Of a DNA stretch of 64,000 nt, positions 54,084-59,898 are shown piece after piece; the stretch's first letter is position 1, and each line of letters begins with the position of its first letter. The translations under genes were made by a program, and so were the position numbers. The notes below the pieces were generated by a model that worked only from the letters and a program-made list of their open reading frames with translations, ran no database searches and was not told the DNA's origin. The DNA is from Denitrovibrio sp. (GTDB lineage Bacteria; Chrysiogenota; Deferribacteres; Deferribacterales; Geovibrionaceae), in the NCBI GenBank assembly GCA_002869145.1, contig PKTM01000027.1, forward strand, positions 134,243 to 198,242, given 5' to 3'.

Positions 54084-55246
54084 CTGATCACCTCTGCACT
54101 TGTTGATGCTGCACGCCAGGCAGGTATTATAACTGCCGAGCCGTAGACTGGAACAGTAATTAAAAAGACAGTGACAACAACACGTATATCAAAGACAAAT
54201 GGCAGACTAAATGATGGTTTAAGGTATGAGTAACCCATAAAAACATCTTTGAGACCTGGTGCATGCAAAACATAAACATATATAAGAGATAAGCAAATTG
54301 CAGTTAGGTAAGAGAAGAGACCTATTACCGATGCCTCATAAAGCTTTACCTTCAAAATATCAGAAGTGCCCCAGCCGAGGGCTTTTAATATTGCTATCTC
54401 TTTCAGCTCGCCCCCTGATGGGCCGTTCAGCCTGTCGAAGATTATCATAAAAAACGTGAAAAGCGATGTTATGAAGAAAAGAAGAAATATGCCTCCTTTA
54501 TAGTCAAACATGTTCTGGTAGGAAGCTTTTATGAAATCTTTTGTTACCACTTTCAAAGATGGGCTTATGTTTAATATCTTTTCGGCTATGGTAGATATCT
54601 CCTGCGAATTTGCACTATTCACTGCGATATCTGTTGAAAATCCGGCTGGTATCCCCAGTATCTCAGCGGCTGATAGCATGTCTGTGATGACGGTATCTGT
54701 GGAGATCATTTGCGAGCTGGTTTGAAAAGTCCCTGCTATTTCTAAGGTTTTATATGTGCCGTCAGGCATCTGAAAGCTGAATTCATCCTTGTTATAAATC
54801 TGCCTGATTATTTCGTGCAGTTTTTCACCTAAAAAAATATTTCGATTAAATTTTAAAGGTGAGATGTCTTTTGTGATCTTAGCGAGAGTTTCTGTAACAT
54901 AAGGGTCATAAATGTCTACCCCTACTATAGTTAGATTGGTGTTCAGATATTCGAATGGATAAAATCCCCAAATTCGAGGTACAGCGGATATAACACCCGG
55001 GAGCATAATAATATCTTCTGCTAATTGTTTTTTTATGTACTGCTGTCTGCCACCGGATATTTTCTGCACAATAATGTCTGGAAGGTTATTCAGAGAATAT
55101 TGTGCTTCTTGTTTCAGGGCACCTGTTATGGTGAATATAGAGAGACTGACTGCAATAAGTAATGTAAATGTAATATATATAAAGGGATATCTACCTTTTC
55201 TTCTCACCAGTGAGTGCAGTGCAAAGTCCAGTAATTTAAAGTTCAT
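54080..55246 (-). CDS. ABC transporter permease, FtsX/MacB-like
   Basis: An N-terminal TM helix, a large periplasmic domain, then 3 C-terminal TM helices (FtsX topology). Confidence 0.75.
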   Translation of the reverse strand: MNFKLLDFALHSLVRRKGRYPFIYITFTLLIAVSLSIFTITGALKQEAQYSLNNLPDIIVQKISGGRQQYIKKQLAEDIIMLPGVISAVPRIWGFYPFEYLNTNLTIVGVDIYDPYVTETLAKITKDISPLKFNRNIFLGEKLHEIIRQIYNKDEFSFQMPDGTYKTLEIAGTFQTSSQMISTDTVITDMLSAAEILGIPAGFSTDIAVNSANSQEISTIAEKILNISPSLKVVTKDFIKASYQNMFDYKGGIFLLFFITSLFTFFMIIFDRLNGPSGGELKEIAILKALGWGTSDILKVKLYEASVIGLFSYLTAICLSLIYVYVLHAPGLKDVFMGYSYLKPSFSLPFVFDIRVVVTVFLITVPVYGSAVIIPAWRAASTSAEVIR

Positions 55247-55539
55247 TTTGGGTGTTCGACCTTTTTGTATATTATAGCCGAAAAATCTGTATCCGGCGCA
55301 AAAGGGTCAACACTGAAAACAGAGCCTATGTCTGTGAGTGTTCGATATCGTTCAGATGGGGATTCTGTATATACGGAAATATCTGACAGACCTGTCAGTT
55401 TCGTGAAGGCCTGCCTGATTATTATATCCTCTGCTGATGGTAAGGCTAGCTTATAAGAGTAAGCAAAAATACCGCATGTCAGCAGCAATAGTATCATAAA
55501 ATATGCAGCAGCTCTGGATGATCTATTTATCCAGACCAT
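55243..55539 (-). CDS. small exported protein (98 aa), part of the nosL-like/ABC operon
   Basis: Signal/TM helix, then a soluble domain. Overlaps both neighbouring genes. Confidence 0.45.
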   Translation of the reverse strand: MVWINRSSRAAAYFMILLLLTCGIFAYSYKLALPSAEDIIIRQAFTKLTGLSDISVYTESPSERYRTLTDIGSVFSVDPFAPDTDFSAIIYKKVEHPK

Positions 55540-56638
55540 ATACTACATCTTTGGTTATTTCATCAAAAAGCAATATTTTACCCCCAGAGTGGTCGCTCAT
55601 AAATGTTTCTGCGTTTTTCATAGTGGAGAAAGGGATAAGTTCACGCCCCATAGGTCCGTATACTTCAGAACATTTTACATAAAAAGCCTTCTCAGCTTTC
55701 AAGGCTTTATTAGAGTAATAGTCAGTGACTAGAATCTCAGACACACGTATATTGTCAAAACCCCATTTTGAAGGCTTCAGATAAAACTTCATCATATCTT
55801 TGACACCATCAAAAGCTGCATGATTTTTCTGACCATTTTTTGTGTAATATATCTTTGATGCCCATTTAGGATATTTATGAACAAACATACCGCAAACGGG
55901 GCACTTTTCACCTTCTTTAATTGTTATGAATGATTCTGACTTATTATTATACCTTACAATATCCCACAGGTATAGTGCTACAGCCTGAAGCTCTGATTCG
56001 CTTAAAAATCCGCATCTGTTGTTAGATTTTATGTCTGCTTTAAGCTCGTTTATACGGTCAAAAAGTGTAGGGTCAACATTTTTATCACATACACTGTTAA
56101 ATATCTTTTCCCCTTTCGGGTACATCATCTTCTGTCTTTTCATGCTTATCATTGAGGTGTCTTTTGCTATAGATTTTTGTGTATATTCAAAAGCATAAGA
56201 ATAGGTTACAATATCACCGCCCATTTTTGCCTGAAAAGCCTCAGCATCATTAATATCCGCAAAAGCGATTTTACTCACTTTGCTCATTGTACCCGGAACT
56301 TTGCTGCCTAGCACATAGTTGGCAGAATAAGCAGGTATAAGCTTCTCAGTGGATGCATCAACAACAAGTATTTCTTTAACTATATCTTGCAGACCTTCAT
56401 TATCGTGAACCATGCAGCTCATTGAGCAGTACTGATTGTTGTGACCGCCTGATAATTTAAGGGCATGGTTTGTTTTATAAAACATTTTCAAACTCATACC
56501 GCATACAGGACACCACGCTTTTTGTTCGCCTTTTTGAATAATTTCAGGTTTTACTGATGCTTTTTTAGAAAAATCCATGTCAGTCGCAAACAAATTAAAA
56601 GAAAACAAAAGTGTTAAAAAAACTAAGATTAACCGCAT
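55523..56638 (-). CDS. exported protein with two tandem NosL/YHS(TRASH)-like metal-binding domains
   Basis: Two CPVCGM motifs (WCPVCGMSLKMFYK ... YCSMSCM and KCPVCGMFVHKY...). Signal peptide. GGAGG RBS before the Met at 56638, so the track's upstream Met is unlikely. Confidence 0.6.
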   Translation of the reverse strand: MRLILVFLTLLFSFNLFATDMDFSKKASVKPEIIQKGEQKAWCPVCGMSLKMFYKTNHALKLSGGHNNQYCSMSCMVHDNEGLQDIVKEILVVDASTEKLIPAYSANYVLGSKVPGTMSKVSKIAFADINDAEAFQAKMGGDIVTYSYAFEYTQKSIAKDTSMISMKRQKMMYPKGEKIFNSVCDKNVDPTLFDRINELKADIKSNNRCGFLSESELQAVALYLWDIVRYNNKSESFITIKEGEKCPVCGMFVHKYPKWASKIYYTKNGQKNHAAFDGVKDMMKFYLKPSKWGFDNIRVSEILVTDYYSNKALKAEKAFYVKCSEVYGPMGRELIPFSTMKNAETFMSDHSGGKILLFDEITKDVVYGLDK

Positions 56639-56814
56639 ATTAACCTCCAAAATCATAATATATGCATGATACAATAAATACAGCAATTGTTCAATGTATA
56701 ATGAGAATGATTTAGTATGATTTTAAAACATATGAAACCAAGTAAATTGACTAAAACTATTTAACCAAAATTAAACGTTGCAAGTAGTTAACCCGCAAAG
56801 TAAAATATCTTATT

Positions 56815-57384
56815 ATGGAGGCAAAGGTGGAACTAACTAGAGAAAATGCTTATGCACTGCTTACAGAATATACAAAAAGTGATTCACTAATCAAACATGC
56901 TCTCAGTGTTGAACAAGCCATGAAGGCTTATGCTGAAAAATTTGGTGAAGATAAGATTCGCTGGCAGATTGCTGGTCTTTTGCACGATTTCGATTACGAA
57001 ATGTACCCTTCACTGGAGGACCATCCATTCAAAGGCATCGAGATACTCAAAGAGAAAGGATACCCAAAGGATATTATCGACGCTGTGGCAGGACATGCTG
57101 AGCATACTGGGGTAAAAAGGGAAACCCTGATGGCTAAGACACTTTTTGCTGTGGACGAGCTTTGTGGTTTTCTGCTTGCCTGTGCATATGTTCGTCCTGA
57201 CAGATACATTGCAAATGTACAGGTGAAAAGCGTTAAAAAGAAACTAAAGGACAAATCATTTGCCAGAGCTGTTAACCGTGATGACATAATTCAGGGTATC
57301 GATGAGCTGGGTGTAGACACAGGAGAGCATATTCAGTTTGTAATAGATGCTCTGGCTGAAATATCTGATGAACTGGGTGTATGA
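56815..57384 (+). CDS. HD-domain (HDIG-type) phosphohydrolase
   Basis: H...HD...H...D metal ligands: IKHALSV ... LLHDFDYE ... HAEHTG ... D. A GTG start at 56827 with a GGAGG RBS is an alternative. Confidence 0.7.
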   Translation: MEAKVELTRENAYALLTEYTKSDSLIKHALSVEQAMKAYAEKFGEDKIRWQIAGLLHDFDYEMYPSLEDHPFKGIEILKEKGYPKDIIDAVAGHAEHTGVKRETLMAKTLFAVDELCGFLLACAYVRPDRYIANVQVKSVKKKLKDKSFARAVNRDDIIQGIDELGVDTGEHIQFVIDALAEISDELGV

Positions 57385-58154
57385 CAAAAAATATAGTCAG
57401 ACAGCTAAAACTGCCTGAAGGCTGCTCTGTAGAATCAGTGTTTTACGGCAGCGGCACTCTTTGTATATCTACTCAGGCTGGCTGCCATATGGCATGCCCT
57501 TTCTGCGCATCGGGCAGGGCAGGGCTTATGAGAAACCTATCTGTGCAAGAACTGGAAGCACAGGTCGAGCTTTATCCAGACATAGAAATAAAGAGGATCA
57601 CACTATCCGGCATTGGCGAACCACTGAGTAATCTTGAGAATGTGGAGCACTTTATATCAGAATCTAAATATCCAGTATCGTTAACCACATCTGTACCAGA
57701 TGCTAGCCTATTAAAAAAAATCATAAAACTTAAACATAATGGAGTAATGCTCTCCCTCCATGCCGGCAGTTTCGAAACACATAAAAAACTCATCCCTAAA
57801 TCAGATAGTTTGAACTTAATATTCGAAGCTATGACAGATATATGGGGAGAGATCTCAGGGAACAGGAAACGCAAAATAGGTTTTAATTATCTTCTTTTTG
57901 ATGGTATTAATGATACTGATGAAGAGATATCTGCTTTTATCGGGAAAATGCTGCAGTTTAAAGAGGCAACAGTACATCTTTTGCTTTGCAACCATGTGGA
58001 ACGAAGCAGGTTCAGATCGCCTGATATTGATCTGTTTCAGGAGATTTACGAAAAGATGCGTGATGCCGGACTGAATGTTCGCCGTGCTAACAATTGGCGA
58101 AAAGAAGCAGAAGGCGGATGCGGCACTCTTTTTCTTAAAACTTTGCAAAAATAA
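57381..58154 (+). CDS. RlmN/Cfr-family radical-SAM methyltransferase lacking the N-terminal ~100-aa domain
   Basis: Aligns to E. coli RlmN residues ~105-365. The resolving Cys is in GTLCISTQ, the cluster ligands CxxxCxxC in AGCHMACPFC, GIGEPL, and the methyl-carrier Cys in GGCGTL. Only ~20 aa precede the core. The start overlaps the HD gene stop. Confidence 0.7.
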   Translation: MTKNIVRQLKLPEGCSVESVFYGSGTLCISTQAGCHMACPFCASGRAGLMRNLSVQELEAQVELYPDIEIKRITLSGIGEPLSNLENVEHFISESKYPVSLTTSVPDASLLKKIIKLKHNGVMLSLHAGSFETHKKLIPKSDSLNLIFEAMTDIWGEISGNRKRKIGFNYLLFDGINDTDEEISAFIGKMLQFKEATVHLLLCNHVERSRFRSPDIDLFQEIYEKMRDAGLNVRRANNWRKEAEGGCGTLFLKTLQK

Positions 58155-58192
58155 ATATTGACACATGTGCGTTTATATAGGATTATCTCGTT

Positions 58193-58255
58193 ATGAAAAT
58201 TGCAGTTAATAATACTAACGTAAAAAACTGGTGGTGGCGTTCAACTTCTTTATAG
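58193..58255 (+). CDS. trpL: trp operon leader peptide MKIAVNNTNVKNWWWRSTSL
   Basis: 20-codon ORF with three consecutive TGG codons. It lies about 35 bp upstream of an intrinsic terminator and ~160 bp upstream of trpE. Confidence 0.75.
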   Translation: MKIAVNNTNVKNWWWRSTSL

Positions 58256-58287
58256 TAGGTTTTCGCCCATATTTAACAGATTATAAC

Positions 58288-58321
58288 GGCTGTGTGGTGA
58301 GAACCGCACAGCCTTTTTTTA
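58288..58321 (+). terminator. trp attenuator intrinsic terminator 1
   Basis: GGCTGTGtggtgagaaccgCACAGCC followed by T8. Confidence 0.8.
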
Positions 58322-58336
58322 TACCCAAAATCACAA

Positions 58337-58369
58337 GGGCTGTGTTTAAAAACGCAGCCCTTTTTTTTT
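58337..58369 (+). terminator. second tandem intrinsic terminator in the trp leader
   Basis: GGGCTGtgtttaaaaacgCAGCCC followed by T9. Confidence 0.75.
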
Positions 58370-58416
58370 GTTTAAACAAAAAAATGAAATTAATATAAAA
58401 GGAACAAGGAGACAAA

Positions 58417-59898
58417 ATGAACCTCACTCAGCAGATTTACCCTTCACAGGAAGAATTTATGGAGCTGGCAGAAGAATTCGACAGGGTGACTATTTACCGG
58501 GAGATAGTGGGTGATACCTTCACTCCCATAACCCTTCTTCGAAATTTTTCTAACGAAGAGAATGTGTTTTTGCTTGAGAGTGCAAATCTGGACAAAACTT
58601 TTTCCATATATTCATTCTTCGGCAACAACCCCAAACGTGTCATCACCTTTAAAAATGGGGAAGTTATAGAGAAAAAAGGTGGAAAAACGCAGAAATTCTC
58701 TATGAATCCAATGGACTACATGAGCCAGCAGTTTTATGCAGAAAAAGGCTACAACGATGGTAAGTTTGGTGATTTTTCAGGTGGTTTTGCCGGTTACTTT
58801 TCATATGAAGCAGTTAATTACATGGATATTCTCCGAACTCCCCTTAAAGTAGATAAAAACACACGCCTTGTGGGCTTTATGGAGGTTGATGAGTTTTACG
58901 CTTTCGACAACCATCTGGGTAAATTGTTTGCCGCTGTGAGCGTTAAAACAAAAGAAGGTGAAGTTGCTTATGACAGAGCTGTAAAGCGCACTATGAAGAT
59001 GAGTTCAGAGGTTCATAGGTTCAATTTTGATAACTATGAATCAGAGTTGGATTGTGAAGTTGTCATGGATATGGAACAGGAAGAGTTCACGGAAAAAGTC
59101 GAGGCGCTCAAAGAAGAGATTACCAACGGCGAAGCCATACAGATTGTCCTTTCTAATGCATACAGACTGAAAGGGAAGGTTAATCCGCTTAGCTTATACA
59201 GGGCACTGCGTAATGTAAATCCATCACCATATATGTTTTACCTGAAATTTGGCTCAGAAGTTCTGCTTGGTGCATCACCTGAGATTCACTTGAAGATAAG
59301 AGAAGGCGTTGCCACTCTTAAGCCTATTGCAGGCACATACCCGATAACCGAAGATATAGAAGCGGCAAAATCAGCACTGCTTGCAGACCCGAAAGAACGT
59401 GCAGAGCATCTTATGCTTCTTGACCTTGCGAGAAATGACCTTTACACATGCTGCGAGCCCGAATCAGTTAAGGTTACACAGCAGTTCGAGCCTGAAGTAT
59501 ATTCTCACGTCATACACATTGTGTCTGAGGTGGTTGGTAAAATAGAGAAGGGTTACAACCCTCTTCATCTTTTTATGCGGTCTTTCCCTGCGGGCACAGT
59601 CTCAGGCGCTCCGAAAGTGCGGGCGATGGAGCTCATTGATCAGTACGAAGTATCAGAAAGAGGCTTTTATGCCGGTTGTGTAGGATATTTCGGGTATAGC
59701 GGAAACATGGATACATGTATAACAATCCGATCAGCATTTGTAACAGAAGAGGAGACAGTTCTAAGAGCGGGCGCAGGTATAGTTTATGATTCTGTACCGG
59801 AGAATGAATTCAAAGAAGTTGGCAACAAATTGGGCGCACTTTTCGCCGCTTACCGCAATGTTGCTATGACGGAGGGCAGAGATGTTTCTAATGGTTGA
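58417..59898 (+). CDS. trpE: anthranilate synthase component I
   Basis: Chorismate-binding family with the LLESA Trp-feedback motif. 493 aa. An AAGGAG RBS precedes the start. Confidence 0.9.
   Translation: MNLTQQIYPSQEEFMELAEEFDRVTIYREIVGDTFTPITLLRNFSNEENVFLLESANLDKTFSIYSFFGNNPKRVITFKNGEVIEKKGGKTQKFSMNPMDYMSQQFYAEKGYNDGKFGDFSGGFAGYFSYEAVNYMDILRTPLKVDKNTRLVGFMEVDEFYAFDNHLGKLFAAVSVKTKEGEVAYDRAVKRTMKMSSEVHRFNFDNYESELDCEVVMDMEQEEFTEKVEALKEEITNGEAIQIVLSNAYRLKGKVNPLSLYRALRNVNPSPYMFYLKFGSEVLLGASPEIHLKIREGVATLKPIAGTYPITEDIEAAKSALLADPKERAEHLMLLDLARNDLYTCCEPESVKVTQQFEPEVYSHVIHIVSEVVGKIEKGYNPLHLFMRSFPAGTVSGAPKVRAMELIDQYEVSERGFYAGCVGYFGYSGNMDTCITIRSAFVTEEETVLRAGAGIVYDSVPENEFKEVGNKLGALFAAYRNVAMTEGRDVSNG

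Follow-up and report, generated by a model that had tools for sequence, protein, structure and literature searches.

What does a radical S-adenosylmethionine (SAM) enzyme act on when it has the catalytic apparatus of the RNA methyl synthases RlmN and Cfr and lacks the N-terminal domain with which those enzymes hold their substrates? RlmN is the methyl synthase for m2A2503 of 23S rRNA and m2A37 of tRNA, and Cfr is that for m8A2503 of 23S rRNA. Both dock on structured RNA through the N-terminal domain and, to our knowledge, no other class A radical-SAM methyl synthase activity has been characterised. The question is raised by a 64,000-nucleotide (nt) stretch of DNA from Denitrovibrio sp. (the window, in whose numbering all coordinates are given), where a gene for an HD-domain phosphohydrolase overlaps a gene for a 257-amino-acid (aa) radical-SAM protein on the same strand. 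An earlier note on this stretch had taken the second protein for an N-terminally truncated RlmN/Cfr-like methylase and had proposed either a different substrate or a two-enzyme modification pathway. With moderate confidence, we read the pair as a two-gene unit whose second gene belongs to a class A clade without the N-terminal domain and probably encodes an RNA-adenine methylating paralogue, and whose linkage to the HD gene is lineage-specific.

The 257-aa protein matched the Pfam family Radical_SAM PF04055 (5.4e-15, 56.4 bits against a gathering score of 29.5), and its Pfam matches comprised PF04055 and PF13353 only, with no N-terminal HhH2 domain PF21016. Its best curated (NCBIfam) matches were all RlmN/Cfr models (PRK14464, 8.9e-34; TIGR00048, 7e-29; Cfr models, about 1e-20), and the alignments began at model position ~81–99 and ran to the end (~345), leaving the first ~80–90 positions unmatched. 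The scores stayed below every cut-off: 100.9 against 290 bits for TIGR00048 (the RlmN equivalog, EC 2.1.1.192), 116.8 against 422 bits for PRK14464, 57.4 against 633 bits for PRK11194, and 71.3 and 77.3 bits against 550 and 530 for the Cfr models TIGR04432 and NF000424. Judged from its sequence, the protein thus belongs to neither RlmN nor Cfr as these are defined by curators. A sequence search of the PDB placed Cfr 9p0p first (8.7e-18) and also returned RlmN 6fz6 and 3rf9. JGI labels several family members 23S rRNA (adenine2503-C2)-methyltransferase, while elsewhere their name is 'radical SAM protein'; the short proteins are mis-annotated as RlmN in some databases.

Alignment with Escherichia coli (Ec) RlmN and Staphylococcus aureus Cfr equated Ec C118, C125, C129, C132, C355 and E105 with C28, C35, C39, C42, C247 and E18 of the window protein, all of them invariant in 119 family sequences. 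The complete catalytic set that had been read from the letters is therefore real, and it has the layout of class A: a CxxxCxxC motif, a methyl-carrying cysteine in the C-terminal loop and a resolving cysteine 7 residues before the cluster motif. Because the catalytic residues are conserved, we infer an RlmN-like mode of action. The CxxxCxxC motif would hold a [4Fe-4S] cluster that binds SAM, as in the established mechanism of RlmN and Cfr. One SAM would methylate Cys247, and a second would be reductively cleaved at the cluster to give a 5'-deoxyadenosyl radical, which would abstract a hydrogen atom from the S-methyl group of Cys247. The resulting methylene radical would add to an sp2 carbon of the substrate, and Cys28 would resolve the covalent enzyme–substrate adduct.

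An AlphaFold2 model built with the 119 family sequences had a predicted local distance difference test (pLDDT) score of 93.2 and a predicted template modelling (pTM) score of 0.90. Three N-terminal strands (residues 5–10, 15–21 and 26–29) lie ahead of the cluster loop in the model, and the C-terminal segment that bears Cys247 is less ordered (pLDDT dropping from 75 to 62), as a mobile loop would be. Foldseek gave 6fz6 and the RlmN structures 3rfa and 5hr7 as the best matches (TMq 0.83–0.85, E 1.9e-20 to 1e-15), well ahead of other radical-SAM families, of which the next was PFL-AE (2e-10). The predicted core is closest to RlmN/Cfr, the beta' sheet extension included, as expected of a class A fold. 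The likeness to E. coli RlmN (YfgB; TIGR00048) thus extends over the partial TIM-barrel core with its beta' extension, the CxxxCxxC and GxGEP SAM motifs, the catalytic cysteines C118/C355 with E105, and the best structural matches. Unlike RlmN, the window protein has neither the HhH2 N-terminal domain (about 75–90 aa) nor the alpha1/beta2 loop extension, identity is 21–31%, and the C-terminal motif is GGCGTL where RlmN has D(I)xAACGQL. Cfr has the same five cysteines as the window protein and presumably its class A chemistry too.

The N-terminal accessory domain is indeed missing, as the note had it: Pfam finds no domain there, alignment with E. coli RlmN starts at about residue 90, and a hidden Markov model (HMM) of canonical N-terminal domains, run on all frames of the window and of 104 short-family loci, recovered its positive controls and nothing else. 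'Truncated', however, was the wrong word. The 120 best homologues are all short (236–323 aa), and they come from Deferribacterota (Denitrovibrio acetiphilus and Seleniivibrio woodruffii) and Desulfuromonadota (Desulfuromonas, Geothermobacter, Trichloromonas and Syntrophotaleaceae); a genome scan added Myxococcota, including Enhygromyxa salina and Polyangia, as carriers. Among the fetched loci, sequences that share 37% identity or more with the window protein had at most 29 residues before the core, and those 27–32% identical, which are canonical RlmN, had 77–200; for canonical enzymes a range of 73–190 was also obtained. A neighbour-joining tree computed on the core common to all, without support values, grouped the short proteins in a single clade distinct from Cfr, from canonical RlmN and from the rlmN-like gene of a plasmid, with subclusters for Deferribacterota, Desulfuromonadota and Myxococcota. 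In an exhaustive representative search, a gap in score likewise set the family proper (223–384 bits for full-length representatives) off from all others, canonical proteins of 340–360 aa beginning at ~156 bits. The DNA upstream of 57381 encodes a complete HD protein in a different frame, and no N-terminal residues can be recovered from it; with the HMM null in the 104 loci, this excludes an N-terminal domain hidden by a frameshift or supplied in trans. The short form is thus the native architecture of a conserved clade, whose members, more than 100 homologues from the three phyla, have 250–300 aa. A literature search found no publication on a family of RlmN-like proteins that lack the N-terminal domain; in Kaminska et al. 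(PMC2836569) there is only a small third subfamily, left unnamed.

In the cryo-electron microscopy complex of Cfr with rRNA, the N-terminal domain anchors H91/H92 of 23S rRNA (PMC13001441), and we mapped the contact positions of that complex onto 27 short-family and 18 canonical sequences. Catalytic and SAM-related positions were invariant in both groups. Among the contacts, Ec R206 (Cfr R184, H90 stem) is L or Y in the short family, Ec R344 (Cfr R327, ribose of A2503) is A, S or P, Ec R347 is W, Ec N307 (Cfr N288, phosphate of A2503) is H, Ec R114 is S or G, and Cfr Y97 and S182 are deleted. Ec R114, R206, N307, R344 and R347 are near-invariant in canonical enzymes, and their replacements are conserved within the short family, which therefore does not have the residue pattern of RlmN. 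Nor does it conserve the Cfr contact residues Y97, W101, R184, R327 and F330. New family-invariant residues have appeared (R72, T74, H119-N120-G121, R234 and the GGCGTL motif), while ribose- and phosphate-contact positions are kept at T26, S100 and the basic stretch R163/R164/K165, and the core is basic (median isoelectric point 8.7).

Such a pattern is to be expected of an enzyme that has kept its chemistry and has changed its substrate or its mode of holding it, and it points to an altered substrate or target site in the short family. The different substrate of the earlier note gains indirect support from the systematic replacement of near-invariant RNA-contact residues. Most likely an adenine base of some RNA is the substrate, and the enzyme recognises it with no N-terminal domain to sense structure. 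Given the missing docking domain, and canonical RNA-contact residues that have given way to family-conserved ones, the target is probably not A2503 or A37, or is recognised in another mode. Taken together, the short clade is best described as a variant of the class A radical-SAM methyl synthases distinct from the known RlmN and Cfr.

The partner gene tells a different story. The first gene of the pair is a very conserved stand-alone HD phosphohydrolase gene. Its product matched Pfam PF01966 (5.5e-11, 43.2 against 22 bits) and the HDIG model TIGR00277 (39.6 against 27.6 bits), the metal ligands H24, H53-D54, H90 and D110 (numbered on the 185-aa form) do not vary among 30 homologues, and the family has an invariant basic motif of its own, KSVKKKLKDKxFAR. 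The AlphaFold2 model had a pLDDT of 96.7, and Foldseek found no close solved relative, the PgpH HD domain coming first (TM 0.57), followed by dNTPase and YqeK. YqeK (an Ap4A hydrolase) and the HD domain of PgpH (a c-di-AMP phosphodiesterase) are the nearest characterised relatives, if remote ones; both have the HD fold with its H...HD...H...D metal ligands and, like the window protein, are stand-alone nucleotide phosphohydrolases of ~190 aa. The protein itself stays below the equivalog cut-off of the Ap4A hydrolase model YqeK TIGR00488, reaching 21.6 against 70.15 bits over its N-terminal 39 residues only, and PDB matches to YqeK had E 0.008–0.06. The HD family is large (>8000 matches scored) and is 65–88% identical across Deferribacterota, Calditrichota and Desulfurella. 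In Deferribacter desulfuricans the order is lgt, HD, ruvB, with the HD gene overlapping both neighbours, and in Desulfurella it is cydAB, HD, DUF2250, rplU. Since the HD gene overlaps lgt and ruvB elsewhere, a stop/start overlap is routine for it and does not by itself indicate a pathway.

Across 103 loci of the radical-SAM family, an HD gene lay upstream in only 7 (7 of the 81 with enough upstream sequence), all from close Deferribacterales relatives, and HD was absent next to the radical-SAM gene outside the Denitrovibrio/Seleniivibrio-type lineage. These loci share the order HD, short radical-SAM gene, gap, trpEGDCFB (L001, a D. acetiphilus-type fragment; L004, L084 and L085; L086, Seleniivibrio; and the metagenome loci L123 and L124). 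The 4-nt overlap recurs in L004, L084 and L085 and is replaced by a 3-nt gap in Seleniivibrio. The neighbouring open reading frames (ORFs) of the family loci, 323 in all, fell into 218 clusters, the largest recurrent blocks being this HD/trp block of Deferribacterales and a P-II/Amt/Gcw_chp synteny in Desulfuromonadales; a partner gene common to the whole family was sought and is excluded, the largest blocks being lineage-specific synteny. The Desulfuromonadales block comprises P-II, Amt, Gcw_chp, radical SAM, EI24 (CysZ-like) and an Inositol_P phosphatase, and occurs in 7–12 loci. The HD linkage is therefore a lineage-specific operon arrangement in Denitrovibrio/Seleniivibrio-type Deferribacterales and not a family-wide module, and a two-enzyme pathway cannot be read from the overlap: HD is a stand-alone gene that has other neighbours elsewhere.

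How firm, then, is the reading of the protein as an RNA-adenine methylating paralogue in a lineage-specific pair? It would most likely act beside a canonical RlmN. RlmN has been reported in nearly all bacteria (PMC4119055), and its lineage includes a branch mostly of Deltaproteobacteria (PMC2836569), so that a canonical copy is expected alongside the short protein. Several observations pull the other way. In the window, tblastn with E. coli RlmN found the short gene only and no canonical rlmN. The contact mapping depends on alignment at ~25–30% identity, with the C-terminal loop its least certain part, and the neighbour-joining tree of the core has no support values. The HD pairing, mostly with the same 4-nt overlap, has been kept while the radical-SAM proteins diverged to 48% identity, and this speaks to some extent for a functional link within the lineage. 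The radical-SAM gene of Desulfuromonadales, moreover, is coupled to an operon with an Inositol_P phosphohydrolase, whose fold is unrelated to HD. From this retained pairing and the different phosphohydrolase of Desulfuromonadales, a functional link stays as a minority hypothesis. As for full-length relatives, the cluster members of the ten best full-length representatives had Arthromitus and Spirochaetota names, with no Deferribacterota among them.

Could the short protein instead be the sole RlmN orthologue of its host, still making m2A2503 and/or m2A37 after loss of the N-terminal domain, with the core taking over recognition? The JGI names of several members say as much, but the window protein scores 100.9 bits where the equivalog cut-off is 290. 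Retention of the catalytic residues and of T26, S100 and R163/R164/K165 would suit such an enzyme, whereas R344, R347, R206 and N307, invariant in canonical RlmN, have been replaced. A variable gene context is what a housekeeping RNA-modification gene would show, yet the short proteins form a separate clade, patchy across three phyla, and do not lie inside the RlmN tree. The lack of a canonical rlmN in the window is in its favour, against which stands the near-universal RlmN (PMC4119055) with its Deltaproteobacteria branch (PMC2836569), which leads one to expect a canonical copy alongside. We regard a sole orthologue as rather unlikely.

The two-enzyme pathway is also improbable in our judgement. 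Here the radical-SAM protein would C-methylate a nucleotide or a small adenine metabolite, and the co-translated HD protein would prepare the substrate or dephosphorylate the product. An enzyme without an RNA-docking domain and with its canonical RNA-contact arginines replaced could be of this kind, although we know of no class A enzyme with a small-molecule substrate. Conservation of the HD/radical-SAM overlap in the Denitrovibrio/Seleniivibrio-type lineage fits as well, but HD is adjacent in just 7 of the 103 family loci, no partner is common across phyla, and the HD family is 65–88% identical across phyla in which the radical-SAM gene was not seen, overlapping lgt and ruvB in Deferribacter. 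An independent association with a phosphohydrolase, the EI24/CysZ and Inositol_P-family phosphatase genes seen in 7–8 loci of Desulfuromonadales, might be taken as a second instance; the two phosphohydrolases, however, have unrelated folds, and a simpler account of CysZ and the CysQ-like protein is that they form a sulfate-assimilation pair. On its own, the linkage to HD is no strong argument for a pathway.

A bolder possibility, which we hold to be doubtful, is that the clade is the first class A methyl synthase with a substrate other than 23S A2503 or tRNA A37, be it another RNA site, a free adenine nucleotide or a cofactor precursor; the same nucleotide would be processed by the co-translated HD protein in Deferribacterales and by the Inositol_P phosphatase in Desulfuromonadales. 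If true, the enzyme might supply a C-methylated adenine, and the clade would extend RlmN/Cfr chemistry beyond the modification of ribosome and tRNA. Whatever its target, a multi-phylum clade with the full catalytic apparatus, no docking domain and a remodelled pocket makes a well-delimited candidate for a new substrate specificity within class A. An artefact or a decaying gene, be it an rlmN pseudogene that has lost its 5' end or a frameshift from sequencing that conceals the N-terminal domain, has only the short length in its favour; it is very improbable, being already refuted by the complete, highly conserved HD protein in another frame upstream, by >100 homologues with the same length and start, by family-specific invariant motifs that indicate purifying selection, by a confident model (pLDDT 93) and by the absence of nearby matches to the N-terminal-domain HMM.

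For a paralogue that has kept class A chemistry and probably changed its target there is a precedent. The clostridial Cfr-like clade consists of RlmN/Cfr paralogues with an intact catalytic apparatus and no A2503 methylation (PMC5062987). These proteins (C. sporogenes; C. phytofermentans ClCp) exemplify functional divergence within class A, and are set apart from the short family by their description as full-length proteins of Firmicutes in a different clade. Unlike Cfr, the window gene is unlinked to any resistance element. The best-scoring curated model for the window protein is of the PRK14464 type (NF011034; 116.8 bits), and the closest full-length relative seen is an rlmN-like protein of Rhodobacter xanthinilyticus plasmid pEJ03, with 35% identity; both kinds of protein have ~336–348 aa, with sequence N-terminal to the core and the canonical AACGQL motif. 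Defence or phage origins were considered and set aside: in PADLOC the matches to defence systems were marginal and generic (radical SAM or HD, E >=1e-3), in PHROGs the best match was generic (1.6e-4), and tblastn matches in a phage collection had <=31% identity.

The features of the locus are listed in Table 1.

Table 1. Features of the HD/radical-SAM locus and of the adjoining trp leader region, in window numbering
Feature	Position	Strand	Basis
Candidate sigma-70-like promoter of the HD/radical-SAM unit, TTGCAA-17-TAAAAT	56778..56806	+	Consensus scan, 9/12
Predicted HD/HDIG metal-dependent phosphohydrolase gene	56827..57384	+	Pfam HD, TIGR00277; longest ORF from ATG 56815
ATGA stop/start overlap, HD gene/radical-SAM gene	57381..57384	+	Read from sequence
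Predicted class A (RlmN/Cfr-type) radical-SAM methyl synthase gene, 257 aa, without N-terminal domain	57381..58154	+	
Cys28 codon, equivalent to E. coli RlmN Cys118/Cfr Cys105, putative resolving/base cysteine	57462..57464	+	Alignment; invariant in 119 sequences
CxxxCxxC [4Fe-4S]/SAM cluster motif (Cys35, Cys39, Cys42)	57483..57506	+	All three invariant
Cys247 codon, motif GGCGTL, equivalent to RlmN Cys355/Cfr Cys338, putative methyl-carrying cysteine	58119..58121	+	Alignment; invariant
Promoter-like site of the downstream trp operon, TTGACA-17-GATTAT	58158..58186	+	Best match in region, 10/12
Putative trp leader peptide MKIAVNNTNVKNWWWRSTSL, 20-codon ORF, three consecutive Trp codons	58193..58255	+	Translation; neighbouring trp operon
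Pair of terminator-like hairpins with a T-run after each	58288-58313, 58335-58362	+	Fold z-score -5.3; upstream of trpE

Both ORFs described earlier, 56815..57384 (189 aa) and 57381..58154 (257 aa), were confirmed on the + strand in the ORF list, and the ATGA overlap between them is genuine and recurs in related Deferribacterales. For the HD gene, GTG 56827 (185 aa) is a likelier start than ATG 56815 (189 aa), because a GGAGG lies at 56819-56823 and the homologues have 183–185 aa and begin like MELTRENAY: all 120 homologues listed are of ~183–185 aa, and their first residues are the equivalent of that sequence. The promoter-like site ahead of it is not significant on its own, the region having 10 such sites against 6.0 expected from shuffles.

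On the downstream side, a promoter-like site directly 3' of the radical-SAM stop marks the 3' boundary of the HD/radical-SAM unit. The trpE gene starts at 58417, and trpE, trpG and trpD were confirmed by Pfam. Region 58158-58416 holds a trp attenuator of the classical kind, and leader peptides with three consecutive tryptophans (WWW) occur at the same place in L004, L084, L085 and L086. With an attenuator between the radical-SAM gene and trpE, the trp operon is separately regulated, which leaves HD and radical SAM as a two-gene unit. An Rfam scan of 55000-59000 returned nothing above the gathering scores; its best sub-threshold match, nqrA-II at 58237-58398 (34.2 against 55 bits, E 0.006), lies over the attenuator hairpins and is most likely a chance resemblance that arises from the paired terminators.

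Outside the window, further observations concern the relatives of both genes. Below the score gap of the representative search lay a second tier of short GGCGTL proteins at ~160–170 bits (P0256, P0259, P0260, P0264, P0276 and P0294). They are divergent, of 262–288 aa, mostly AT-rich and without the N-terminal domain, with common GGCGT C-terminal and (T/S)TS motifs, and P0256 was a near-singleton in a word-indexed homology search. The architecture without the N-terminal domain may therefore extend beyond the clade studied here. The Desulfuromonadales block was located at 6001-8377 in L002 and L003, at 5001-7482 in L091 and also in L089, with stop/start overlaps at both junctions in L002. In two loci of Geopsychrobacteraceae type (L005, 4583-5875; L088, 3649-4959), a class I SAM methyltransferase gene (272 aa) precedes the short radical-SAM gene, as does a small protein of 120–125 aa with a faint OprD-like match, and a further radical-SAM gene and more methyltransferase genes lie upstream in L088. 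The pEJ03 gene (L095, 3797-4807; 336 aa, annotated rlmN) is carried on a 24.8-kb plasmid next to floR, tet(G) and genes for an IS1380-family transposase and for regulators of the TetR and LysR types. As a member of the RlmN/Cfr family on a plasmid, within a resistance island, it could be a resistance determinant like Cfr.

Upstream of the HD gene, loci L084–L086 encode a response regulator that bears a domain of HD-GYP type (HD_5), together with a large hybrid kinase (PAS/HisKA). In the window this place is taken by a divergent NosL/ABC cluster, so that the HD gene is the upstream boundary of the conserved block. The divergent gene at 55523-56686 (- strand) encodes a two-domain NosL protein (Pfam NosL, 5e-49 in two stretches) with CPVCGM motifs. 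Its start is probably ATG 56638 rather than TTG 56686, because a GGAGG precedes the former and a signal-peptide-like MRLILVFLTLLF follows it. With the NosL and HD starts at 56638 and 56827, the intergenic gap, given in the earlier note as a clean 128 bp, comes to ~188 bp. Beyond the NosL gene lie a small ORF and then genes for an FtsX-like permease and an ABC ATPase.

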